This document shows, one piece after another, positions 6,644 to 20,629 of a stretch of 64,000 bases of DNA (position 1 is the first letter of the stretch; every line of letters begins with the position of its first letter). This stretch comes from a virus: the IMG/VR virus record IMGVR_UViG_3300009509_000014, positions 1 through 64,000 of that record, one strand, 5' to 3'. A model generated the notes under the pieces. The model was given only the letters and a program-made list of their open reading frames with translations. It was not told the origin of the DNA and did not search any database. The translations under genes were made by a program, and so were the position numbers.

Positions 6644-6715
6644 CAGGGGTATGAGGACTCGAACCCCAATTCGCGGTGTTGGAGACCGCTGTCCTTCCAA
6701 TTGGACGATACCCCT
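6644..6715 (-). tRNA. tRNA-Trp(CCA)
   Basis: AGGGGTA/TACCCCT; loop CTCCAAC. Confidence 0.93.
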
Positions 6716-6734
6716 AATCGTCATTATCTCCTAT

Positions 6735-6763
6735 ATTATACTGGAAATAATGACCATTGTTGA
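6735..6763 (-). promoter_or_regulatory. sigma70-type promoter driving the tRNA cluster
   Basis: TCAACA-17-TATAAT with shared TTCCAG motif before -10. Confidence 0.7.
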
Positions 6764-6766
6764 GAA

Positions 6767-6925
6767 TTATTCGGACAATATCAACGCTCTGATTTTATGC
6801 AGCTTGTCAGAAGCGGTGGTGTTGTATTCCCGAATGATGTCTTCTATAAGAGCCAGCGTACCTAAGTTTACCGTTTCGGTAAAGCTGTCTATTAGACCTT
6901 GTGCCTCATATTCATCAAGTTCCAT
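6767..6925 (-). CDS. small hypothetical protein
   Basis: Short ORF overlapping the CCA-adding enzyme stop. Confidence 0.4.
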   Translation of the reverse strand: MELDEYEAQGLIDSFTETVNLGTLALIEDIIREYNTTASDKLHKIRALILSE

Positions 6926-8363
6926 TGGCCAACTTGGCACCTTCCCGTTCGGTAAAGATGTTTGTCTTTTTGATATTGATCGCTTCATTTAACAGTACTC
7001 CTGACTTGTTTTCGATCTTTCCTTCTATCACTCCGTGCAGTAATACATTTAGTATTTCGCCAACTTCCTTGCCCTCTTCAATCGCAAGGGCCTCCATTAT
7101 GTCGTGTCCGTTAACTGCCAGGTCTGTAACCCTGAATACGGATTTCGCGTCAATCTCTGCATTTACAAGATTGAGTGCATAATTTTCTATCTTGAGAAGT
7201 TCTTTGCTTTGATCCTTGCCGTTAACGCCAAGGTCCTTCTTTACATCGGCAAAGCGTGTTAGAAAGACAAATGCCATACGTCTCTTAAGCTCTTCCGTTG
7301 AGTTATTCCCGCCGAGATCAATCTTGCTCAAAAACCTACGTGCGGCTGCTGGAGAATCAACTGTATACATATGATACCTAACCGAAAGCCAGATAAGCCT
7401 ACGAATATCCTCTGGCAATCGCAGCCGACTGGTGATTATTTCCGAAATATCAGCACCAGCCTGCTCATGCTGGTAAAAGGTAGCCCCGTATTCGCGGCTT
7501 TTGTACTGCCTAACAACTGGCTTCCCAATATCATGCAGTAAAACTGCAAGTTTATTGTTGGCCTTGTAGCCCAACTCATCAGCTTTCGCCATACACCTTA
7601 GAGTGTGCATCCACACGTCTTCAAAGTCGTGGTGTACATTCTGAGTTACGCCATTTAGTGCATATACTTCTGGCAAGATTACCTCTAGAAGCCCAAGGTG
7701 CTTTAGTGTCAGTATATACTTCATTGATATAGGAGACTCAAGCCCCTTCATAAACTCCTTACCAATTGCATCCCAGGACTCCCTTGCGATAAGGATTCTA
7801 TACTTGGTAATAGCTTCGATCAGATCGGGTTCGATAGTATACATGCTGTCGAGAGACGTGGCGAATCTTACATATCTCATCATTCTAATTGGGTGAGCCT
7901 TGATTCTCTTTACCGGATCGCCGATTGCACGGATTCTTCGCTTTGCAATATCATTACGACCTTCAAATGGATCAATTATGTTTCCATCATGATCCATAGC
8001 TATTGCATTTATAGTCATATCTCTCCTTGCCAAGTCTTCTGTTAGGTCGCTTGTAAAGCTAAACTTTACAGGCTTCCCGTCAACATAATCGGCGTCAGAT
8101 TCCTGTCTCATTGTGACGACTTCTACAAAGTCACCCTTCTCTATCGAAGGAACGTTAACTGACACAGAGAATGCAGCACTTATGATCGAAGAGCCGTCAA
8201 ACAAGTCGAGAATCTCTTTAGGAGTAGCACTTGTTACAACGTCGTAATCCTTGATCGGAAGCCCAAGATACGCATCCCTAACAGCGCCTCCAACAAGATA
8301 CGCCTGATGTCCAGCGTCAATCAGCTTCTTCATTATATCCCTGTACGACAAACCTTCGCCCAT
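6915..8363 (-). CDS. cca: CCA-adding tRNA nucleotidyltransferase with HD domain
   Basis: LVGGAVRD...DYDV, EDLARRDMTINA, DPFEG, R..RFA; HD domain DVWMHT...LLHDIGK. Confidence 0.93.
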   Translation of the reverse strand: MGEGLSYRDIMKKLIDAGHQAYLVGGAVRDAYLGLPIKDYDVVTSATPKEILDLFDGSSIISAAFSVSVNVPSIEKGDFVEVVTMRQESDADYVDGKPVKFSFTSDLTEDLARRDMTINAIAMDHDGNIIDPFEGRNDIAKRRIRAIGDPVKRIKAHPIRMMRYVRFATSLDSMYTIEPDLIEAITKYRILIARESWDAIGKEFMKGLESPISMKYILTLKHLGLLEVILPEVYALNGVTQNVHHDFEDVWMHTLRCMAKADELGYKANNKLAVLLHDIGKPVVRQYKSREYGATFYQHEQAGADISEIITSRLRLPEDIRRLIWLSVRYHMYTVDSPAAARRFLSKIDLGGNNSTEELKRRMAFVFLTRFADVKKDLGVNGKDQSKELLKIENYALNLVNAEIDAKSVFRVTDLAVNGHDIMEALAIEEGKEVGEILNVLLHGVIEGKIENKSGVLLNEAINIKKTNIFTEREGAKLANGT

Positions 8364-8445
8364 AAGATTACCTCTCATTCTTTGGTATTATCATACGACA
8401 TAAATTACTGCGTCGTAACCTTTGGTAACGTTCTTACATGTCTCC

Positions 8446-8476
8446 AAAAAAACAAGCGGGGTAATTCCCCGCCTGT
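8446..8476 (-). terminator. intrinsic terminator
   Basis: ACAGGCGGGG-AATTA-CCCCGCTTGT followed by a T run. Confidence 0.75.
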
Positions 8477-8506
8477 CGCTTGCACTAGATTATTTACGTT
8501 CAGATT

Positions 8507-8704
8507 TTACTCTGATTCCTCTGGCGGAGATTCCACTTTTTTCCTTACCTTCGTCAATCTATATTCGCCAGACGCTAGTGCGTGAAGCACGACAAACGCG
8601 GACTGATTGATTCCGAGCGATTCGTCGTTATAGATACTGCGACCCAACTTCTGAATCTCTTGGGCCTCAGACATTATCATCTGCACTGTAATACTATGAG
8701 CCAT
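8507..8704 (-). CDS. small hypothetical protein, possibly DNA-binding; monocistronic
   Basis: Own promoter, AGGAGG SD, downstream terminator. Confidence 0.65.
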   Translation of the reverse strand: MAHSITVQMIMSEAQEIQKLGRSIYNDESLGINQSAFVVLHALASGEYRLTKVRKKVESPPEESE

Positions 8705-8741
8705 AATTTCCTCCTGTAATATAGCGTACTAATACAGGAGC

Positions 8742-8770
8742 ATTATAGCACAAAAGCTGCTAGTTTGCAA
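8742..8770 (-). promoter_or_regulatory. sigma70-type promoter
   Basis: TTGCAA-17-TATAAT with extended TG. Confidence 0.7.
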
Positions 8771-10187
8771 GTAACATACCAATATCTCCAGTGAATTTAT
8801 ATATCGTCGTGTTCACTGGCAATACAACCTTCGTGTCTGTCACTATTCCACCATGTACAGAACCAGAGTACGACAGTGTTTTTATGTCAGTGTTCGAGAC
8901 AACAGTTTCTCCCCTTATAGTGCATAGATATGGAGGTTTATAGTCTATGTCACTCTTTATTTGAACAAATATACCTTCCGGACTGACCTTGAATTCGCTA
9001 GCGACTTCTTCTAGGCTACTGCCGTGGCTCTTTACCCTGAACGCACGGAACTTGTTTGTTTTTGCACCAATGCCAACACGTAAGGAAGGCCATGTTGGGT
9101 CAACTTTCAACATCATATCTTTTAGTCGGTAATTGTCAAAGCTGTAAATCAATTCTTGCGAATTGGCATACCCAAGTTTCCATTCAAGTCGTCTAATGGC
9201 TTGCAGTGCCTGTGAACCAAAGCGCATAAACTTGACTTTTACATTCACGCCAACTGCAAGATAATTATTCATGAAGGTTATAAAGTCATAAATCCCATCC
9301 ATGTGTGCAGTTATATACATCGTTACCGTAAATCCTGCAGGATACTCATCTTTGAGCATGTCGAAGAGGTACATTATTGGCGAGTAAGCTAGTGTATAAT
9401 CCTCATTTTTTGGAATTGGGTACAACTGTTTTGCTGTTGACTTCATCAATTCACTTGGCGAATATTCTGTCATGCCAGATGGCCCATGCAAGAAAATCCT
9501 TGAATTGCCAGGGACACTATCGAGCCATCCCTTCCACGCATCTTTGTTCGCGAGTAATGTACGCCCCGCGTACTTCCTGTAATGTGGCGTGTCGGCTATA
9601 ATTATTATATGTGGCATGGCCTTTTGTACACCTTGCAATTCTGACACCATGACACTTGTCCGTTCGCCAGAACTGGCCTTTGCTGGAACTTTATATATCA
9701 TAGCCTCTTCGTTCAGGCGATATATATTCCAGTTGCCGACAGGTAGCAGCTTCCTGATCTTCGCTTCAACGCTAACCTTTTTGCGGCTAACGCTTTTACG
9801 CCCAACTGCCCAATAAGCTTCGCTGTCAGCGGTAATAACTCCAACAACTATCTCTCTTGCTGATTCCAGGAGCTTCCTTTGCCATTCAAGAGATGCAGCT
9901 AGCTTTTCGGTAACAATGTCGGCATAATTAACAGCGGTCCCAACCTCCTTTGCGAAAACCTCTGGCCGAGCGTCTTCTAGGAGCTTTAGACTTTGTATCA
10001 CAAGGTCAAGATATACCACTGCACTGCATGTTGCAATAATCCCTTTAGACGCAGGGTTCTTTACAAGGACTCCCTTCGTGGGGGCAAACACTGTGGATTT
10101 GTCACTTGAATACGAAAAGTAGGACGAAGGACTTATCCAACCTAGATCATACAGCAGTGGCTTCTGTGTCGTTTCCATCACCATCAC
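8760..10187 (-). CDS. hypothetical protein, last gene of the putative Ubl operon
   Basis: 475-aa ORF overlapping the upstream gene; no recognised motif. Confidence 0.75.
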   Translation of the reverse strand: MMVMETTQKPLLYDLGWISPSSYFSYSSDKSTVFAPTKGVLVKNPASKGIIATCSAVVYLDLVIQSLKLLEDARPEVFAKEVGTAVNYADIVTEKLAASLEWQRKLLESAREIVVGVITADSEAYWAVGRKSVSRKKVSVEAKIRKLLPVGNWNIYRLNEEAMIYKVPAKASSGERTSVMVSELQGVQKAMPHIIIIADTPHYRKYAGRTLLANKDAWKGWLDSVPGNSRIFLHGPSGMTEYSPSELMKSTAKQLYPIPKNEDYTLAYSPIMYLFDMLKDEYPAGFTVTMYITAHMDGIYDFITFMNNYLAVGVNVKVKFMRFGSQALQAIRRLEWKLGYANSQELIYSFDNYRLKDMMLKVDPTWPSLRVGIGAKTNKFRAFRVKSHGSSLEEVASEFKVSPEGIFVQIKSDIDYKPPYLCTIRGETVVSNTDIKTLSYSGSVHGGIVTDTKVVLPVNTTIYKFTGDIGMLLAN

Positions 10188-11751
10188 CTCCAGTGTCTAT
10201 TTCTTCGGCTATTGCATTGTCGGCCCCATTGTCTTTTCCAGCCGCCTGTGTATCCGCAGGTTTCTTGCCGTCATTAAACTCCCTGATCTGTGTTATTAAT
10301 CCCTTTGGGTGAGTCTCTTCATTTTTAACGTATGTCAAAAGTTCCCGCCTTTGCACAAATAAACATTCGGGACACACATAATTATACCCCCCTCCCGCTT
10401 GATAGAAGTACAAGGGGACATTGTGCTTGGAACAGATAAAATACGTTGACTCTACGTGCAGCCTTGCATTGAACCCGCATGAGCTATCAATACATATTCC
10501 ATTGGCTAGAGCCGAGTAACACATTGGGCAAACTTCCGAAATGCCTGCCTGTACTTCTTCTTCAACCTCAAACCAATCGCAGGCCAAACAATATGCTGTT
10601 CCGTCAAGCTCTACAACCATGCCTCCGCACTTCCCACAGGCGGTGGATCTCCTTACCGCAGTAGACGTACTTTTTGAACTTTGGACAGTGGTGGCCGGAG
10701 TAACTTCTTGCCTATGAACGGCGCTGGTCGCAGCATTCTTGGCCGTCCTTCTTGCATTGTCCCAGGCATTCAGCGTTTTACCTCCAACACGCGATGACCA
10801 GATAGAGAATTTCCTTTGGACAGAACTTGTTTCTTTCGACTCTCCTGGGAATGCCACTTTTGCGTTTGAGTATCTGTTAATAGACACCCCATTTACTTCA
10901 TTGTATTCAGCTAGAGGTCCAAGCTGAAACGCAATCTTCCAGTTTTTAGGAACTGAGTCTCTTGGACCAATAAAGTCTGCATGGCCCACTCCACTTGTCG
11001 TTGAAGACCATTGACCCTTTACTGTAGTCCCACCAGATTTTTTCACCTGGGCAGAACTTGACATCATAACTACGCATGGGACCATTGGTGGTTCGTCAAC
11101 AAACTCAAACCGGAGAGTGTCACGAATCATCTTCGCTTCTGGACCGTTTGGATCAAAACCCATAGCGTCTATGAAGTCATCATTCGATGCGCCGTAAGTT
11201 TGCAGTGCCAGTGGATTTATTCCCAATGCTTGTGCAAATTCCTTTAGCTGATCTCCAAGAGTTGACATCTTTGGAACATAAACCTTGGTAATTCCCTTGC
11301 CCCAAGGGACTGCAAGCCCGTGAGCGACAGCCAGAACATTTGCCTTGTTAACTCCATCAGAGTTCACCCTTGGGTGCTGCTCAAACCAATACTTGTCTCC
11401 AGGGGTGAGTGTCCCAAGGCCAAGTGCCTCCAGGTACTTTTTCGTGGCGTCATATACACAACTATTCACATGATAATGATATGTTGTTGACGTAAACCCA
11501 TCTCCCCCTGGATCGACCTTCCATACCGGAAGCTTCTTGTCTCCGGTTGTCATTTCTGGCTCTACGTTCCCAAGAAGGGATTCGGCGGCAAATTCACTAA
11601 TTTCGTGCATTGTGCCATTATTGTCGATCAGGTAACCTCCTGGCTCTTTTTTGACCGTGCCAGCAGTTGCTTTGAAAAATTGTTTTGCCACAACCGGAAC
11701 AAGTCCGGTTTGCCCCTTGCCATCACCTTTACTTGTCGGAATTAGGGACAT
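10147..11751 (-). CDS. putative Cys-His (papain/OTU-like) peptidase with C-terminal Zn ribbons
   Basis: NSCVYDA and GHADF candidate catalytic motifs; CGKC/CLAC, CPMC/CIDSSC, CSKH/CPEC; the function is an inference. Confidence 0.5.
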   Translation of the reverse strand: MSLIPTSKGDGKGQTGLVPVVAKQFFKATAGTVKKEPGGYLIDNNGTMHEISEFAAESLLGNVEPEMTTGDKKLPVWKVDPGGDGFTSTTYHYHVNSCVYDATKKYLEALGLGTLTPGDKYWFEQHPRVNSDGVNKANVLAVAHGLAVPWGKGITKVYVPKMSTLGDQLKEFAQALGINPLALQTYGASNDDFIDAMGFDPNGPEAKMIRDTLRFEFVDEPPMVPCVVMMSSSAQVKKSGGTTVKGQWSSTTSGVGHADFIGPRDSVPKNWKIAFQLGPLAEYNEVNGVSINRYSNAKVAFPGESKETSSVQRKFSIWSSRVGGKTLNAWDNARRTAKNAATSAVHRQEVTPATTVQSSKSTSTAVRRSTACGKCGGMVVELDGTAYCLACDWFEVEEEVQAGISEVCPMCYSALANGICIDSSCGFNARLHVESTYFICSKHNVPLYFYQAGGGYNYVCPECLFVQRRELLTYVKNEETHPKGLITQIREFNDGKKPADTQAAGKDNGADNAIAEEIDTGGDGDGNDTEATAV

Positions 11752-12469
11752 CAGAAACCTCCTTCTGGCCACTTGTTCCTGTTATGCACCGTGCCGTTGT
11801 ATTGATTCTGCCGTCGCCAATACCAACTACCCAATTCACCATGTCTCCGTTCTCGGCAACCCTTCCGCGATCTTGATAGACGATTCCGACAGGATCGTGA
11901 CCACTGATATAGATGAAGATTGATATTGCAGCACATTCTGTCACCAAGGCAGAAAACACCCGCGTTGCAACAAGCGCACAGGCAGGTTCCTTTTCCTCAG
12001 ACACCTTGTAGTCCTTCGCGATTCCTGTAAATGGCATGGTTACAACGTCTCCGTGCGACCACGACACAACCCCTCCAACCTGTGATAGACCAAGGTCGAT
12101 GTATGGAATGCCATATTCTTGCGACGCCTGTAGGAGTAGCTGCCTTGATGGAACATTGTCAAGCGCACCAACAATCAGCGTATGACCCTTCACGATCCAC
12201 AGGTTCTTCTCTGTGATTCTCACTCTCTGGACCTTGACATTAAGACCAGCGGCTTCATAGACAGGCGCAAGGATGTCAGCCTTGTTCTTGCCGATGCTCG
12301 CGGGAACTCCGAGATTCCCTGGCGAGTTCCGTTTCTCAACCTTGTCAAAGTCAACAAGGGTTACTCCAAACGGAACATCGAGAGAGGTCGAGAAAGCGCA
12401 TAGAGGGCTAGCGATCATGGAGCCTAACAATCCAGCGCCTACTATCAAAATGTTGTTCCCATTTACCAT
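11729..12469 (-). CDS. ThiF/MoeB/E1-family adenylyltransferase
   Basis: IVGAGLLGS, VDFDKVE..N, GKNKA, GALDN..SR, YIDLG; Cys in EPACA at the crossover-loop position. Confidence 0.88.
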   Translation of the reverse strand: MVNGNNILIVGAGLLGSMIASPLCAFSTSLDVPFGVTLVDFDKVEKRNSPGNLGVPASIGKNKADILAPVYEAAGLNVKVQRVRITEKNLWIVKGHTLIVGALDNVPSRQLLLQASQEYGIPYIDLGLSQVGGVVSWSHGDVVTMPFTGIAKDYKVSEEKEPACALVATRVFSALVTECAAISIFIYISGHDPVGIVYQDRGRVAENGDMVNWVVGIGDGRINTTARCITGTSGQKEVSDVPNSDK

Positions 12470-12470
12470 A

Positions 12471-13661
12471 TCATCCTCCTATCGTAATTGGCGGGTATAG
12501 TTGGCCAATCTGTTTAGACTTCGACCCAGGACTGACGCCATGAACCAGTGCGTACATTTGCTTCTTGTGGAGCGACACACCCATCGTCTGATATTTTGGA
12601 GATTCGCAAGTGCATCCATAGACCGAATATGGGCAGTACGGATCGCCACATTCGCATACATTTTGAACGGACTTTCCACATTTCACGCACATATTTTTCC
12701 CCGCTATGTCGTATGTAGAATTTGTACTACTGCACTTTGCGACAGGACACTTCCCGTATGGCTCATTTAGCATCATACCACACTTCGCACAGTACAGGCC
12801 AATCATCCCATACGGAGTTACTCCGGAAATAGCATTGGCCATAGCTGTTAGAATTGGTACGGATGCAAGCGGGTTAGAACTTTTCTTTTCTGGCTTGAAT
12901 ATCTGTCCAAAATCTCCAAAAACGTCTTTGCCTTGCCGCTTTAGCCAGAACAGCCTCAGTGAAGTCGTTGCCCATGTTCCTACAGTTTGGCCTTGTGTCA
13001 TGGATGCAATTCGGATATCCTTGTTATTGTACGAACCGTACCCTTCGCGCTGGCACCAATACGAACAGACAAATCCAGTTGGATAAGGGAATTCCTTTGG
13101 AATCTTCCGATATCTTGTATGGAAGCCATCCCACATTGGCTTCGTTAGCCAGTGAACAACATTATACCCTGGGTATAATGGATCAAGTCCCTTGATATCG
13201 AATACGGTTGCAACCACAAGCCCCTTGTAGACAAGTGGCTTTCTGAACATTGCGCCGATGGCGTCTGCAGTGTTTTCCATACGACCGTCAGACAGGTAAT
13301 AAATGTACCGAATTGAGTTACCCCTGATAGTAACGGCGTTGCCGAAATAGCGTTGCAGATCTCGCAGGACCATTCGCCGCTCAGCCGATTCGTCCCAAAA
13401 TTCCTGTGGCTTGATCACTGGTTTCACCCAGGTATTGTCGTGGTTAACATGGCCAGTTCTAGACCTCATTTCCCTCATAATTCTTAACTGGAGATCTTTA
13501 TCATACGTCACAAACTTTTGCGAAGCATCGCCAGTATTAGGGTCGTATACATGAAGCCTTAGTCCATGACGCCCCCCAAAAACGGTTACGTTATCAAGCA
13601 CCTTGTTTTTCTCTGTATCGTAAAGCCTTGTTGTTGGCCCATCATTCAATGTGACAAGCAT
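12471..13661 (-). CDS. putative E2 (UBC-fold)-like protein with Cys-rich Zn-finger C-terminus
   Basis: Helix ERRMVLRDL, YKGLVVATVFDI...LYP, H...GFVC resemble the UBC pattern; many C-terminal Cys pairs. Confidence 0.5.
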   Translation of the reverse strand: MLVTLNDGPTTRLYDTEKNKVLDNVTVFGGRHGLRLHVYDPNTGDASQKFVTYDKDLQLRIMREMRSRTGHVNHDNTWVKPVIKPQEFWDESAERRMVLRDLQRYFGNAVTIRGNSIRYIYYLSDGRMENTADAIGAMFRKPLVYKGLVVATVFDIKGLDPLYPGYNVVHWLTKPMWDGFHTRYRKIPKEFPYPTGFVCSYWCQREGYGSYNNKDIRIASMTQGQTVGTWATTSLRLFWLKRQGKDVFGDFGQIFKPEKKSSNPLASVPILTAMANAISGVTPYGMIGLYCAKCGMMLNEPYGKCPVAKCSSTNSTYDIAGKNMCVKCGKSVQNVCECGDPYCPYSVYGCTCESPKYQTMGVSLHKKQMYALVHGVSPGSKSKQIGQLYPPITIGG

Positions 13662-13682
13662 ATCTTACCTCCTGGATAGAAT

Positions 13683-13717
13683 AAAAAAGGCCGAGAGTGG
13701 CAGTCCACTCTCGGCCC
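13683..13717 (-). terminator. intrinsic terminator after the Ubl-like gene
   Basis: GGCCGAGAGTGG/CCACTCTCGGCC hairpin followed by T6. Confidence 0.85.
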
Positions 13718-13757
13718 TTGTGCTGTGTGTTCTGCCGCAGGCTCAGGTCAACTGCGT

Positions 13758-14216
13758 CTAGCCAAACGGCGCAGCGGCCAGCACATGCCATTCCACCCCG
13801 TCGTTCGGGATCACCACCATCTGCGGAGTGAGGTCGCCAGCCGCGATGTAGAAGTGGTCTGTCCCAGGGTCCTGATCGCTGATCACGAAGCTGTGTTCCT
13901 TCACCAAGTAGTTGCAGGTCGCGTCCACGATCCGCTGAGGGAGCGGCTTCGAGCTTGATGCCAGAAGATCGGCGGTGAGCTTCCCCATCGCTGCCTGCAG
14001 CTTCGCCGCGTTACCAGCCGCGCCGAGAGCTTTCAGTTCGTCAAAGTTTGGCGGAGCAACGTCTGCGACCTTCTCGCCATACTTGTCCAGGAACTCTGCC
14101 AACCCGCCGCGATAGTCAACCTGCCGTGTTGCGCGGCCTCCAGCACTCGTTGTCTTCGCGCCCGAAATAATAACCGAAATCTGATCGGACGCTCCTACTG
14201 TCAATTCTTTTGCCAT
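13758..14216 (-). CDS. putative ubiquitin-like (beta-grasp) protein with helical insertion and C-terminal Gly
   Basis: Ends MVVIPNDGVEWHVLAAAPFG, like MoaD/ThiS L.DGD.V......G; N-terminal beta-beta-alpha pattern; GGGAGGT SD. Confidence 0.55.
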   Translation of the reverse strand: MAKELTVGASDQISVIISGAKTTSAGGRATRQVDYRGGLAEFLDKYGEKVADVAPPNFDELKALGAAGNAAKLQAAMGKLTADLLASSSKPLPQRIVDATCNYLVKEHSFVISDQDPGTDHFYIAAGDLTPQMVVIPNDGVEWHVLAAAPFG

Positions 14217-14287
14217 GTTGTACCTCCCGTATACAGGAATTTTTGACGGGCCGAATCACAAAATGTCTGTGACCCGCCCGACTGTAT

Positions 14288-14316
14288 ATTATACTGGAAT
14301 TGTCTAACTTTGTTGA
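14288..14316 (-). promoter_or_regulatory. sigma70-type promoter of the Ubl operon
   Basis: TCAACA-AAGTTAGACAATTCCAG-TATAAT. Confidence 0.75.
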
Positions 14317-14843
14317 GAATTACTGCGGATCACCTTGTAAAAGATTGGATGATCTTTTCCAACATACCACCTGTAAGTACTCCCCAATTTGCCATAATCC
14401 ATTATATATTCTGGATAAGACTCTGTAAGTCTTTTATAGGAAATTGTGCCTTCTGTGGTGTTGATCCTTTTACATAATTCCCACGGTACAAGGTAAGCTT
14501 CCGCACTCATACGCCCCATTATTTTTTGTCTATTCCAGTCTAATTTCATACTTGGCATGTCAAGAAATCCTATAGCTACCCATGAAGACATTGGAGCTAG
14601 ATTTTCTACAAAATCTAATGCGCGAATTTGATGATCTCTAAATACAGACATTGGCATTGTCCATCCAGAAGCCTTTTTAGCTTCTATGGCGACAAACCTG
14701 AGAATTTTCCCGCCATTTACAGTAAGCGGAATTCCAACCACGTAGTCGAATGGCTTTAGCGATCTCCCGCAGTCTGGTATTTTTATAGAGAACCCAAGTT
14801 TCCTGAAAGCTAGCTTGCGTTCAAACTTGCTCTTAACGCTCAC
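14304..14843 (-). CDS. RecU-like Holliday junction resolvase (PD-(D/E)XK)
   Basis: KPFDY...FVAIEAK...HQIRAL. Confidence 0.75.
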   Translation of the reverse strand: MSVKSKFERKLAFRKLGFSIKIPDCGRSLKPFDYVVGIPLTVNGGKILRFVAIEAKKASGWTMPMSVFRDHQIRALDFVENLAPMSSWVAIGFLDMPSMKLDWNRQKIMGRMSAEAYLVPWELCKRINTTEGTISYKRLTESYPEYIMDYGKLGSTYRWYVGKDHPIFYKVIRSNSQQS

Positions 14844-15334
14844 ACTATAATACGACCTTTCTTATCGACGGAATATACAAGAGCGCCATCCTGTCTGCCA
14901 CCGCCGCTAAAAAACACCACTATAGACGGAAATGGTGCTTGATCTTTCTCGCCAACAAATCTTAACCTTCCCTTTATTATAAGTATTGCGAAAGCATGTT
15001 TCAATATTATGTCATGAAACCATCTGGTATCTGTTCTGGCAGGAAGAAGCATACAAACAAACGATCCATGTTTCACAGATTCGTGATACCCCTTCTTTAC
15101 CCATTTAGGAGTAATGTACTTCCCATACGGAGGATTAACCCATACGGTTCCTTTCCAGTCTTGGGAAAGTGCATCGTCCTCTTTTGTGTAAAACACTTCA
15201 CACTTTGCGTTCTTTGGTGTTGCTGCCGCATCTAGTGTAAAATGGAACATTTCGTTAAATGTGTCAAAAAGGTCTTGTGGAGTTTCGTACTCATCTTTTT
15301 TGGAGGACATCATAGCCCCCTTCATGTCAACCAC
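14840..15334 (-). CDS. phage DNA N6-adenine methyltransferase
   Basis: ETPQDLF, FTLDAAA, WVNPPYG, LLPARTDTRWFH, GRLRF. Confidence 0.92.
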   Translation of the reverse strand: MVDMKGAMMSSKKDEYETPQDLFDTFNEMFHFTLDAAATPKNAKCEVFYTKEDDALSQDWKGTVWVNPPYGKYITPKWVKKGYHESVKHGSFVCMLLPARTDTRWFHDIILKHAFAILIIKGRLRFVGEKDQAPFPSIVVFFSGGGRQDGALVYSVDKKGRIIV

Positions 15335-18331: not shown

Positions 18332-18618
18332 AAATATTCGCTCTCTATGCCAAACCTGCCAATTACTTCTCTTGCCCTTGCGGCAGGATGAAGTTTCTCC
18401 GATCTGTCAAGCATTTTATATAATAACGCACATGATTCAAGATGCTCACATTCAACACAGAATGTGCTACCTATAAACTCTTTCGTAGAAATTCCTAGCC
18501 AGCAATTCAAGAGGCGTATATTGGCAACTGCTATCTTCCTTGCCGCCTCTTGCTCTGCAATCGGTAATAAGAGTTGTTTATTTTCATCATCCACATTTAC
18601 TGTATCCGCAGATTGCAC
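18328..18618 (-). CDS. hypothetical protein
   Basis: Coupled ORF with CVEC..L..C. Confidence 0.55.
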   Translation of the reverse strand: MQSADTVNVDDENKQLLLPIAEQEAARKIAVANIRLLNCWLGISTKEFIGSTFCVECEHLESCALLYKMLDRSEKLHPAARAREVIGRFGIESEYL

Positions 18619-20629
18619 AAGTAGAACATCCTCCCTGATAGTTTAGCTCTCCACTGCACTCTGGACACTTTGCTGCTGTTGTTTCGTACCTGCTAAGTGT
18701 TTGCGCTATAAGCGCGGGAATGCTAGTGACCGATTGCCCCTCAATCTTTCTCAGTTGTTCGATTATCTTTTCCAGTGGCGCACCAACACGCAGGGCCAAA
18801 CTGGAGAGCCTTGTGACTGCTGTAACCAATTGCAATTCTTTTAGCGACCTTATATAAGGAGTGTTTACAAATACTTCCCACGGTCGCTTGCCATCTATTG
18901 TATTTACAGTTATGTACAAATTTGTACTTTCACCTTCAATATTGCCAACTACCTTGTATGTATCGCCAGATAGAACCGCAGGTCTTGCTAACAACTCTGC
19001 CTCTTCAACGCGGGATGTGTATTCGGACGACAAAACTTGCCGAGTCCTAGAACCGTCTCTGTACACAGTACATCCATTACACCCCTTATCGTAAGCATAA
19101 AACAGTACATTAAGAACATCTTCTACCGTTGCGTTGTTTGGCAAATTAACCGTGTAAGATATACTGGTATCGACGTATTCAGAAAATGCGGCAACCGTGT
19201 CAATAACTGCTGACCAGGGAAGATCGTATAGTGTTACAAATCCATCTGCTCCAGCAAGATTGTGTAAGATTGTGTATTCGCCTGTCCTATCACTCCGCTT
19301 TGTTATTGCACTAAAGATTGGTTCTATGCCAGCCGAACAACCGGCTAGAAGGCTAATCGTGCCAGTTGGAGCAATTGATAACAAGGCATTATTTCTCCTA
19401 CCGTTAAAGTCTCCATGTGTTCCCGATCCCTTTTCCATCATTAGGGTTTTGCTTTCGTCTTCTGCGACTTTCATCAGCAGTTGCGCGATCCAGCCAGCCT
19501 TCGCTACGGCCTCAACAGAACCATACTTGTGTCCCATCTTAATAAGAGCATCAGCGAATCCCATAATGCCTAGCCCTATTGACCTGTTCCTGTACGACCA
19601 AGCCGCCGTTGCCGATGTCGGGAATTCGTTTAATGTAATCATGTTGTCAAGAAATCTAACTGCTACCCTTATAACTCTCTTAAACTCTTCAATGTCAATA
19701 TATCCTAGCTCATCGACGAATTCCGATATATTTATGCTCCCAAGACAGCAACTCCCGTTTGGTGGAAGTGGTTGCTCACCACACGGATTCGTGGCCTGAA
19801 TCAATGACGGATCATATTTTGTGCGCCTGCGAATCGTGTCAATAAACAGAACACCAGGCTCTCCATTCTCCCACGCCCCGTTTGCAATAGCTGTTAGAGT
19901 TTCCCGTTCTTTAGTGTCTATATGTGAAGCATTTTGCATAAACTCGTCAGAAGCCAACACGCTCATGTTAAAGTTTGACAGATATGTCTCCGATGCGGCT
20001 AGGATTGCACGGTCCTGCAGTAGTTGTTCGGCAACACCTTTTGGGTTGTCTGTAATCCTATTGAGATTTAGTAATTCGATTACGGAGTTTACTGGGGACT
20101 TTGCGGTAATGAAATCCACAATATCTTTATGGGAAGCATCCATAGTTGCCATACAGGCAGCGTCACGGAATCCACCCTGCGTCATCGTAAGCATGTCGTA
20201 TGAAAATGTCTTCCAGAATCCAACAGGCCCTCCAGCGATACCGTGGGTTGAACCGCGGACTGGAGATCCAGCAGGCCGAAGGTTTGAAAGGCCAATGCCC
20301 CAACCCCCTCCAGATTTCGTGATTGCCATAGCGGTAGCCTTGGCCTCTGCGATTGAATCCAGGTTATCTTCTAGTCCTATAACAAAACACGCGAACAAAC
20401 CCCCTCCGTGTCCAGCGTTTACAAGGCATGGGCTATTCGGCAGAAATTTACCAGACGCCATTACTTCGCGGAATATTAGCTTCCAGTCAGAACGTAGTCC
20501 ATCCTCTTCTGTCTCTGCGGAAGCTATAAATGACGACACTCTATCAAGGAGTTCGTCTGGTGTGCTTTCGCCATTACGGTAATATCTTTTTGCAAGAATG
20601 CTCTTTGCCATTTCTGTTTCAGCGAACAT
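18587..20629 (-). CDS. nrdJ: class II (adenosylcobalamin-dependent) ribonucleotide reductase
   Basis: FLPNSP.L.NAG, ATNPCGEQ, CCLGSIN, IAPTGTIS, TVYRDGSR; C-terminal Zn ribbon; no beta-subunit gene nearby. Confidence 0.9.
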   Translation of the reverse strand: MFAETEMAKSILAKRYYRNGESTPDELLDRVSSFIASAETEEDGLRSDWKLIFREVMASGKFLPNSPCLVNAGHGGGLFACFVIGLEDNLDSIAEAKATAMAITKSGGGWGIGLSNLRPAGSPVRGSTHGIAGGPVGFWKTFSYDMLTMTQGGFRDAACMATMDASHKDIVDFITAKSPVNSVIELLNLNRITDNPKGVAEQLLQDRAILAASETYLSNFNMSVLASDEFMQNASHIDTKERETLTAIANGAWENGEPGVLFIDTIRRRTKYDPSLIQATNPCGEQPLPPNGSCCLGSINISEFVDELGYIDIEEFKRVIRVAVRFLDNMITLNEFPTSATAAWSYRNRSIGLGIMGFADALIKMGHKYGSVEAVAKAGWIAQLLMKVAEDESKTLMMEKGSGTHGDFNGRRNNALLSIAPTGTISLLAGCSAGIEPIFSAITKRSDRTGEYTILHNLAGADGFVTLYDLPWSAVIDTVAAFSEYVDTSISYTVNLPNNATVEDVLNVLFYAYDKGCNGCTVYRDGSRTRQVLSSEYTSRVEEAELLARPAVLSGDTYKVVGNIEGESTNLYITVNTIDGKRPWEVFVNTPYIRSLKELQLVTAVTRLSSLALRVGAPLEKIIEQLRKIEGQSVTSIPALIAQTLSRYETTAAKCPECSGELNYQGGCSTCAICGYSKCG

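Follow-up and report, generated by a model that had tools for sequence, protein, structure and literature searches.

A Phage Gene Cassette with the Candidate Parts of a Ubiquitin-Like Activation and Transfer System and a Cysteine Protein of Unrecognised Fold in the E2 Position

Introduction

Does a phage own a conjugation pathway of the ubiquitin-like (Ubl) type? This question is raised by a cassette of five minus-strand genes, named here A to E, which occupies with its candidate promoter the positions 8760–14316 of a 64,000-nucleotide stretch of viral DNA (hereafter the window). The window is the first 64 kb of the 73.9-kb IMG/VR virus record IMGVR_UViG_3300009509_000014, which is about 60% complete and is that of an uncultured tailed phage from sediment. 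In the bacterial world, Ubl conjugation has been characterised only as a host defence against phages, in the Bil, Bub and type II CBASS (antiphage signalling based on cyclic oligonucleotides) systems, and our full-text searches of the literature found no description of a virus-owned or phage-encoded E1-Ubl kit. A phage-encoded system, if true, would show that the same chemistry is used on the phage side too.

An original prediction, made from the DNA sequence alone, had read the five genes as encoding, in that order, a Ubl protein, an E2-like protein, an E1 enzyme of the ThiF type, a Cys/His peptidase and a 475-amino-acid protein. From the evidence presented below, we propose, with a confidence that is modest and lies a little on the probable side, that the cassette is a phage-owned system of Ubl activation and transfer, which operates with a non-canonical carrier and with a papain-type protease in place of a JAB peptidase. 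The predicted phage-owned conjugation pathway is still the best reading of the cassette, but the mapping of E2 motifs on protein B did not stand.

All five minus-strand open reading frames (ORFs) were found where they had been predicted:

13758–14216, minus strand: gene A, 152 amino acids, ending in ...AAAPFG-stop; candidate ubiquitin-like modifier with a helical insert
12471–13661, minus strand: gene B, 396 amino acids; conserved-cysteine protein in the E2 position
11729–12469, minus strand: gene C, 246 amino acids; minimal single-domain ThiF/E1 adenylating enzyme
10147–11751/11772, minus strand: gene D, 534/541 amino acids; Cys/His protein
8760–10178/10187, minus strand: gene E, 472/475 amino acids; accessory protein

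The last four genes are tightly packed, as had been claimed (B/C gap of 1 nucleotide; C/D overlap of 23–44 nucleotides; D/E overlap of 32–41 nucleotides), and the A-to-B intergenic gap is 96 nucleotides. The motifs that had been quoted for the proteins, namely RRMVLRDL, YKGLVVATVFDI, GFVC, NSCVYDA and GHADF, are all present in the sequence.

The Four-Gene Core Recurs in Very Distant Phages

The strongest evidence that the genes A, B, C (E1) and D work together is their linkage across very distant phages. A check of gene order in viral metagenomes, which the original prediction had called for, showed that this four-gene core is adjacent in seven viral loci: the window, L006, L007, L008, L009, L015 and L016. 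In L006 and L007, the genes stand in the same order as in the window (A-B-C-D-E, followed by an ORF of 65 amino acids), beside the same resolvase-like, Dam, clamp and RecA genes. L008, L009, L015 and L016 are viral contigs of 194–235 kb (the jumbo-phage loci), which were reached via distant relatives of B (about 20% identity). Their gene order is small protein, E1, B, D in L008; small protein, B, E1, D in both L009 and L015; and small protein, short B, E1, D in L016. Thus kept in two gene orders, at about 20–30% protein identity, the core shows a B-like gene adjoining the E1 gene in all seven loci, and the ThiF proteins of the distant contigs belong to the same subfamily. The D profile matches the homologues of L008, L009 and L015 at 1e-30 to 5e-32, and that of L016 at 1.8e-8.

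Because the core recurs in seven viral loci, the cluster stands far beyond chance. This finding bears on the possibility that the genes adjoin each other but serve no common pathway: the ThiF enzyme would catalyse something unrelated, for instance the modification of a nucleotide or a peptide, and the other three proteins would be early proteins with no relation to one another. In favour of this possibility, E1 is the only one of these proteins with a family assignment; against it, the four genes remain adjacent in seven loci in spite of the two orders and the low identity, and the terminal Gly of A is invariant (see below). We therefore regard it as very improbable.

The core appeared to be absent from the better-known collections, as neither the 50,697 GenBank phage records (searched as DNA and protein with the whole region, E1, B and the jumbo-phage B) nor the 185,579 prokaryote genomes (pattern scan with both B-family alignments) gave a match.

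The ThiF loci L001–L004, L017, L019 and L020 were set aside as other systems, being devoid of A-, B- and D-like genes. In L019 (4991–7870) and L020 (6971–9673), which are IMG/VR contigs, a few genes separate two ThiF-like genes, and an ORF of about 900 amino acids comes after them; these loci look like a different ThiF-based system, in which the A, B and D families are not present. L001 (3733–6546) encodes a viral protein of 937 amino acids whose central part is a ThiF domain; it may be an E1 fusion, and by the other profiles it is unrelated to the cassette.

Gene C Encodes a Minimal E1 Enzyme

The reading of C as a ThiF/E1 enzyme was confirmed by its match to the Pfam family PF00899 (ThiF), with 62.4 bits versus a cut-off of 28.1 (E = 4.7e-17), in agreement with the whole-genome search. 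In an alignment of the five E1 sequences of the window, L006, L007, L008 and L009, which goes down to 22% identity, the invariant residues are G11, G13, G16, D40, R47, N48, K63, D104, N105 and C164. This conserved set includes the GxGxxG loop, the Arg finger, the Lys and the Mg-binding Asp104, and the cysteine C164 is invariant even in the jumbo-phage homologues:

11978–11980, minus strand: codon of E1 Cys164 (in KEPACAL), candidate catalytic cysteine; the K-x-P-x-C motif is invariant in the five aligned sequences

C164 sits 60 residues past the Mg-binding Asp104. By this spacing, we liken its placement to that of the ThiF/MoeB loop cysteines, which we take to lie 57 residues past the Mg-binding Asp. 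As had been predicted, no CxxC zinc pair occurs in the C sequence.

Judging from its sequence scores, C is not an orthologue of ThiF or MoeB. All its NCBIfam matches reach 15–38 bits versus cut-offs of 145–647, and its best ThiF/MoeB equivalog scores are 22–38 bits versus cut-offs of 159–450, which are not reached. The matches to PDB sequences are weak (TcdA, 1e-5; UBA6, 1e-3). The best PADLOC match is BilD (1e-7), over the positions 210–330 of the 453 of BilD only, and the matches to the PADLOC 'E1-E2' profiles are weak and partial (1.5e-4 or worse).

Protein A Resembles a Ubl Precursor

The AAAPFG C-terminus of A is invariant in fifteen homologues (47–74% identity), three of which extend past the Gly, by A, A and HAA. 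In the four jumbo-phage loci, the proteins in the A position are 145–164 amino acids long and end in QWG, VWGK, VWG and TWGF. Hence, the terminus of the A family can be written as an aromatic residue and a Gly followed by zero to three residues; the Gly is kept in the 15 close and the 4 distant homologues, and the extensions that follow it in five of them are A, A, HAA, K and F. The A profile matches the small protein of L015 at 1.1e-5, and a profile-profile alignment extends over the full length, with the terminal Gly as its last position (E = 0.015).

The structural model of A gave weak matches of the beta-grasp type. Compared with the PDB using Foldseek, the A model gave no match; Pfam, PHROGs, PADLOC and NCBIfam returned no match to A, including none to a ThiS/MoaD profile, and the comparison of the A, B and D families with PDB sequence profiles yielded zinc ribbons or noise only. 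A terminal Gly that never varies and that a short extension may follow, encoded beside an E1, is in sequence terms the signature of a putative Ubl precursor. The view of A as the tag was supported: A is precursor-like in that every homologue keeps the aromatic-Gly end, and its model has weak beta-grasp-type matches.

Gene A Is Flanked by Candidate Transcription Signals

The original prediction had assigned one promoter to the five genes. The following signals flank gene A:

14288–14316, minus strand: sigma-70-like promoter candidate upstream of gene A, TCAACA-17-TATAAT (10/12)
13686–13719, minus strand: strong hairpin terminator between A and B, 15 bp, 9 GC, T tail

The promoter-like site is indeed present, but the claim had omitted the terminator between A and B, a probable attenuating stop, and a single promoter for the five genes therefore needs read-through. 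It is worth noting that 11 sigma-70-like sites were found in the region versus 9.3 expected from shuffles; as such sites are not enriched over shuffled sequences, the consensus match alone proves nothing. Similar promoter-like sites precede the A homologues in L006 and L007, and a near-identical hairpin lies 3' of the A homologue in L007, the closest relative, which thus keeps both signals.

The RNA contigs of four metatranscriptome runs, from two studies, were mapped on the 6.5-kb region 8400–14900. Within the span of gene A, they cover 13713–14269, 13720–14273, 13736–14247, 13744–14075 and 14098–14258, the second of these contigs running straight into adapter sequence at 14273. The single contig outside A (13325–13540; 216 nucleotides, low depth) lies inside B. 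The contig starts at 14269–14273 are 15–19 nucleotides downstream of the −10 hexamer and fit the promoter-like site, while the ends at 13713–13744 fall at the hairpin terminator. In other words, the span 13713–14273 is gene A, from just past the −10 hexamer to the terminator hairpin. A carry-over of DNA in RNA libraries is possible in principle; it is an unlikely source of this pattern, because one transcription unit was picked out in four libraries. The absence of RNA contigs from the other genes is no evidence of their silence.

Together, these data support the occurrence of an abundant monocistronic A mRNA, the enzymes being supplied by read-through. The expression of A appears high relative to that of the enzymes, which fits a tag made in excess, and transcripts of the tag gene are present in metatranscriptomes from the environment.

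The apparent excess of A mRNA is also relevant to a different reading of the cassette, in which A would be a sulfur carrier: once adenylated, A would be turned into a thiocarboxylate that delivers sulfur to tRNA, a DNA base or a cofactor, with B acting as a persulfide carrier or acceptor enzyme and D as a tail trimmer. The nearest named relatives of E1 (ThiF, MoeB and TcdA), the conserved cysteines present in both E1 and B, and the fact that a CCA-adding enzyme and a tRNA array adjoin the cluster are in keeping with such a role. However, the search for sulfur-pathway partners found none, in line with the original prediction: the 73.9-kb record has no rhodanese (and no JAB, searched for with Prok-JAB), and the desulfurase, PP-loop, ThiG and MoaE families were matched by none of the 17 proteins scanned. 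Furthermore, E1 scores 38 bits versus the cut-offs of 159–450 and is devoid of a CxxC zinc site, while A, with 150 amino acids, has an aromatic-Gly instead of a Gly-Gly end and matches no ThiS/MoaD profile. Finally, an mRNA in excess would be unusual for a catalytic sulfur shuttle. In view of these points, we consider the sulfur-carrier reading improbable.

Protein B Is an E2-Position Protein with an Invariant Cysteine

Protein B is composed of an N-terminal small barrel (amino acids 1–72), a core (amino acids ~85–250) and a double zinc ribbon tail (amino acids ~285–340), the latter being matched by Pfam DZR in 11 of 34 members. It has 12 full-length homologues at 40–63% identity, and 35 relatives at E ≤ 1e-3 among 1.84 billion representatives. 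Ten distant relatives were scanned and matched no Pfam family, and the searches of the B family in Pfam, PHROGs, PADLOC, NCBIfam and PDB sequence profiles returned zinc ribbons and sub-threshold noise only.

The residues Y122, D125, G147, C203 and R205 are invariant across 34 B sequences, and they fall within the motifs R-Y-x-x-Y-x-S-D-G, P-L-x-Y-x-G-x-A and W-C-(Q/E)-R. The last one holds the cysteine that we propose as the acceptor of the tag:

13047–13058, minus strand: WCQR motif with the invariant B Cys203 (codon 13053–13055), proposed thioester cysteine

No histidine is invariant across these 34 sequences, and B therefore suits a carrier better than a hydrolase. The short B form of L016 (241 amino acids) keeps versions of all three motifs, as NDG, AGRA and NCER. 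L009 carries three B-like paralogues in a row (6665–7600, 7590–8240 and 8877–10313) upstream of its single E1 gene; each of them has a (W/Y)C(Q/E)R motif, and the two extra ones, of 216 and 311 amino acids, keep CxR. The presence of three such paralogues beside one E1 may recall, by analogy, the use of several E2s per E1. Since the CxR motif is kept in forms of 216, 241 and 311 amino acids, the B core would measure roughly 200 amino acids.

The E2 motifs that had been mapped on B could not be upheld, and the mapping fails by the refutation criterion that the original prediction had set for it. C198, the cysteine of GFVC, is replaced by Ala in eight of 13 close homologues, while the wider family does not retain H181; as neither residue is conserved, GFVC/H181 was ruled out as an E2 active site. 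No HPN motif is present. It is C203, five residues further on, that is invariant instead. Protein B should be termed an 'E2-position cysteine protein of unrecognised fold' in preference to an 'E2'.

Protein D Is a Candidate Papain-Type Peptidase

Protein D would consist of a probable papain-type peptidase domain (amino acids ~40–300) and three zinc ribbons (amino acids ~365–465), the ribbons being conserved in the close group only. The Cys/His pair that had been proposed for D held in a wider comparison, C98 (VNSC) and H257 (GHA) being invariant, together with H126 and R264, in 14 sequences that include the jumbo-phage forms. The codons of both motifs were checked:

11452–11469, minus strand: D VNSCVY motif (C98)
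10975–10989, minus strand: D VGHAD motif (H257)

The order of the residues, Cys then His, and the G-H-A context presumably recall the papain-fold enzymes. The language-model neighbours of D belong mostly to the Peptidase_C39, C39_2, C70 and IpaJ clusters, with values of 0.78–0.83 that lie below the 0.9 level and are a lead only. The Atlas model of D is poor (pLDDT, predicted local distance difference test, of 0.44), and the family libraries and PDB sequence profiles gave zinc ribbons and sub-threshold noise only. D would logically serve in processing and deconjugation, because the extended forms of A have to be trimmed and the conserved core contains no other candidate protease.

The removable tail of A and the cysteine of D together bring to mind a variant in which A would be joined, via its aromatic-Gly, to a lipid head group (e.g., phosphatidylethanolamine) or to a small amine, as Atg8 is, with D performing an Atg4-like processing or recycling. 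What speaks for it is a parts list that serves as a lead only: an aromatic-Gly with a removable extension, a cysteine-type instead of a JAB protease, a small single-domain E1 and a non-canonical carrier. However, we found no sequence or fold link to Atg8, Atg3, Atg4 or Atg7, and the resemblance of the tails could be convergent or due to chance, so that this variant seems to us quite improbable, slightly more so than a sulfur carrier.

Proposed Pathway and Points Against It

Starting from what was directly observed (the gene linkage in distant phages, the assignment of C as an E1, the Gly, Cys and His residues that never vary, and the seemingly high expression of A relative to the enzymes), we infer a pathway of A adenylation, thioester relay, conjugation and D peptidase activity, which would operate as follows. 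Gene A would produce an abundant small protein exposing a C-terminal aromatic-Gly, directly in the window phage, and after trimming in the relatives with one to three extra residues. The minimal ThiF-type E1 would adenylate the Gly152 of A with ATP, and would probably take A onto its Cys164 as a thioester. The tag would then be handed to the invariant Cys203 (WCQR) of B, which would pass it to an amine on a target; the target would be a protein of the host or the phage, unless the amine belongs to something other than a protein. D, with its invariant Cys and His, would be the protease that trims and/or removes the tag, in the slot occupied by the JAB peptidase of Bil, Bub and CBASS. The zinc ribbons of B and D, as well as protein E, would be lineage-specific additions, which may select the targets.

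The following points weigh against this proposal. First, the B model, in spite of a pLDDT of 85, matched neither UBC nor another solved fold in the PDB, and matched nothing in BFVD (Foldseek). Second, the UQ_con, Prok-E2, BilB and Cap2 profiles matched none of the 34 B members. Third, the carrier role suggested for B draws on its position, the size of its core and one invariant cysteine. Fourth, D has no peptidase match in Pfam, NCBIfam or PDB sequences. Fifth, the RNA contigs carry neither strand nor level. Sixth, as the record is about 60% complete, partner genes could lie outside it.

The first two points favour an E2-less scheme, in which E1 alone would activate A and hand it to the targets (as in archaeal SAMP/UbaA, Thermus TtuB/TtuC and Urm1), and B would be an adaptor, an E3-like ligase or the main target. 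Such a scheme would also suit the E1, which is minimal and single-domain and has the SAMP-activating UbaA among its weak matches, and the barrel and zinc ribbons of B, which could bind targets. We nevertheless regard it as unlikely, since the invariance of the (W/Y/N)CxR cysteine in 34 diverse sequences and in the forms of 216–241 amino acids argues for chemistry at this site, and since B adjoins the E1 gene in each of the seven loci.

Returning to the preferred reading of a phage-owned activation and transfer system with B as its carrier, we also put forward, as a distinctly more tentative extension that may well prove too bold, that a complete and self-contained conjugation pathway is owned by phages belonging to two or more widely differing size classes, that the carrier is a structurally new, non-UBC 'E2' of independent origin, that the tag and the protease are Atg8/Atg12-Atg4-like, and that the system is used early in infection, on host proteins, on the phage's own proteins or even on membrane lipid.

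Gene E, the 65-Amino-Acid ORF and the Genomic Context

The 475-amino-acid protein E had been regarded as a possible part of the system. It was ruled out as a core member, as it is absent from the jumbo-phage versions (L008, L009, L015 and L016) and has homologues in L006 and L007 only. E gave no match in Pfam, PHROGs, PADLOC and NCBIfam; its structural neighbours resembling VWA domains are a hint only, with a template modelling (TM) score of ~0.3 on a poor Atlas model (pLDDT 0.38). A ...LLAN motif, located at the C-terminus or close to it, is conserved in E and in both of its homologues. Two features follow gene E:

8507–8704, minus strand: 65-amino-acid ORF downstream of E; in the close relatives, perhaps a sixth gene of the cluster
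8451–8477, minus strand: terminator-like hairpin with an 11-bp stem, 7 GC pairs and a T tail, which closes the cluster after the 65-amino-acid ORF

The 65-amino-acid ORF has counterparts of 56–75% identity at the equivalent place in L006 and L007, and no family match in Pfam, PHROGs, PADLOC and NCBIfam.

The right arm of the window encodes a GpA-type terminase and a portal protein. The left arm encodes RecA, the beta clamp, the Dam methylase and a ribonucleotide reductase of class II, together with a CCA-adding enzyme and a tRNA array. The cassette is located in the replication/early region of the phage. The CCA-adding tRNA nucleotidyltransferase, which has an HD domain, lies at 6915–8378, directly downstream of the cassette; the class II-type ribonucleotide reductase, with a TSCPD domain, at 18587–20629; and a protein of the sulfotransferase family is encoded at 101–805.

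The stretch 8760–14316 occurs nearly unchanged (0.98–1.00 of the sampled words) in DNA runs of at least six studies, some of which may be the source of the record itself. These runs are labelled marine sediment, mangrove, sludge or unspecified metagenome, and a partial match was found in soil.

Comparison with Known Systems

The Bil (BilABCD) systems are bacterial ISG15-like anti-phage conjugation systems (PMC11601596; PMC10557695). Similarly to Bil, the cassette is a four-part operon comprising a tag, an E1, a carrier and a protease; its E1 and carrier are likely cysteine-based, and BilD is the best PADLOC match of its E1 (1e-7). Unlike Bil, which is host-encoded, the kit is phage-encoded. 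Its E1 is a single domain of 246 amino acids, whereas BilD is organised as IAD-AAD-CYS; the place of the JAB peptidase BilC is taken by a Cys/His protein, the record being devoid of JAB; the carrier has no UBC fold match; and the tag, of 150 amino acids, contains a helical insert and terminates in one aromatic-Gly.

Bub (6E/DUF6527) operates with Tyr/Ser oxyesters, E1 and E2 proteins devoid of a catalytic Cys, and a Ser-His protease, DUF6527 (PMC11601596). What the cassette would have in common with Bub is the wide divergence of its Ubl pathway, a protease that is not of the JAB type and belongs to a new family, and a non-canonical E2; it differs from Bub by the invariant cysteines of E1 and B and by the Cys/His nature of D. 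The five cluster proteins have no match to DUF6527 in Pfam, and no homology between Bub and the cassette was found. As for type II CBASS, no CD-NTase match (Pfam) occurs among the cluster proteins, the record has no JAB, and there is no Cap2 E1-E2 fusion.

In the sulfur-carrier and E2-less systems ThiS/ThiF, MoaD/MoeB and archaeal SAMP/UbaA, as in the cassette, a small protein ending in Gly goes with an adenylating enzyme of the ThiF fold. However, the E1 of the cassette is far below the equivalog cut-offs, the zinc CxxC, the rhodanese and the Gly-Gly end are lacking, and two conserved partners, B and D, are added.

Phages are known to encode another Ubl protein, TAPI, which acts in tail assembly in lambda and T1 with TAPK (JAB + NlpC/P60) (PMC1779556). 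TAPI and A are both encoded by phages and both end in Gly, and the likeness would extend to a beta-grasp-like fold and to linkage with a papain-fold peptidase. TAPI systems have no E1 and lie among tail genes, whereas an E1 and a cysteine protein are present in the cassette, which lies in the replication/early region.

The likeness to the eukaryotic Atg8/Atg12 systems (E1 Atg7, E2-like Atg3/Atg10 and cysteine protease Atg4) would be functional: an aromatic-Gly with a short removable extension, a cysteine protease instead of a metalloprotease and a non-canonical carrier. In addition, the E1 cysteine would be placed, by its spacing, like the ThiF/MoeB loop cysteine, in a manner reminiscent of Atg7. 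Nevertheless, the cassette has no detectable sequence or fold relation to these systems. Atg8 itself is conjugated to phosphatidylethanolamine and recycled by Atg4 (PMC13712035).

A carrier devoid of a recognisable UBC fold may show how an E2 function can have an independent origin, and a Cys/His protease in place of JAB is what is found in eukaryotic Ubl systems. As the system has four genes, its size should ease reconstitution, and both the nature of what the phage tags and the relay of a Ubl thioester by a non-UBC protein are thus directly testable. Altogether, the cassette would function in the manner of the conjugation systems Bil, Bub and type II CBASS, and is a member of none of them.

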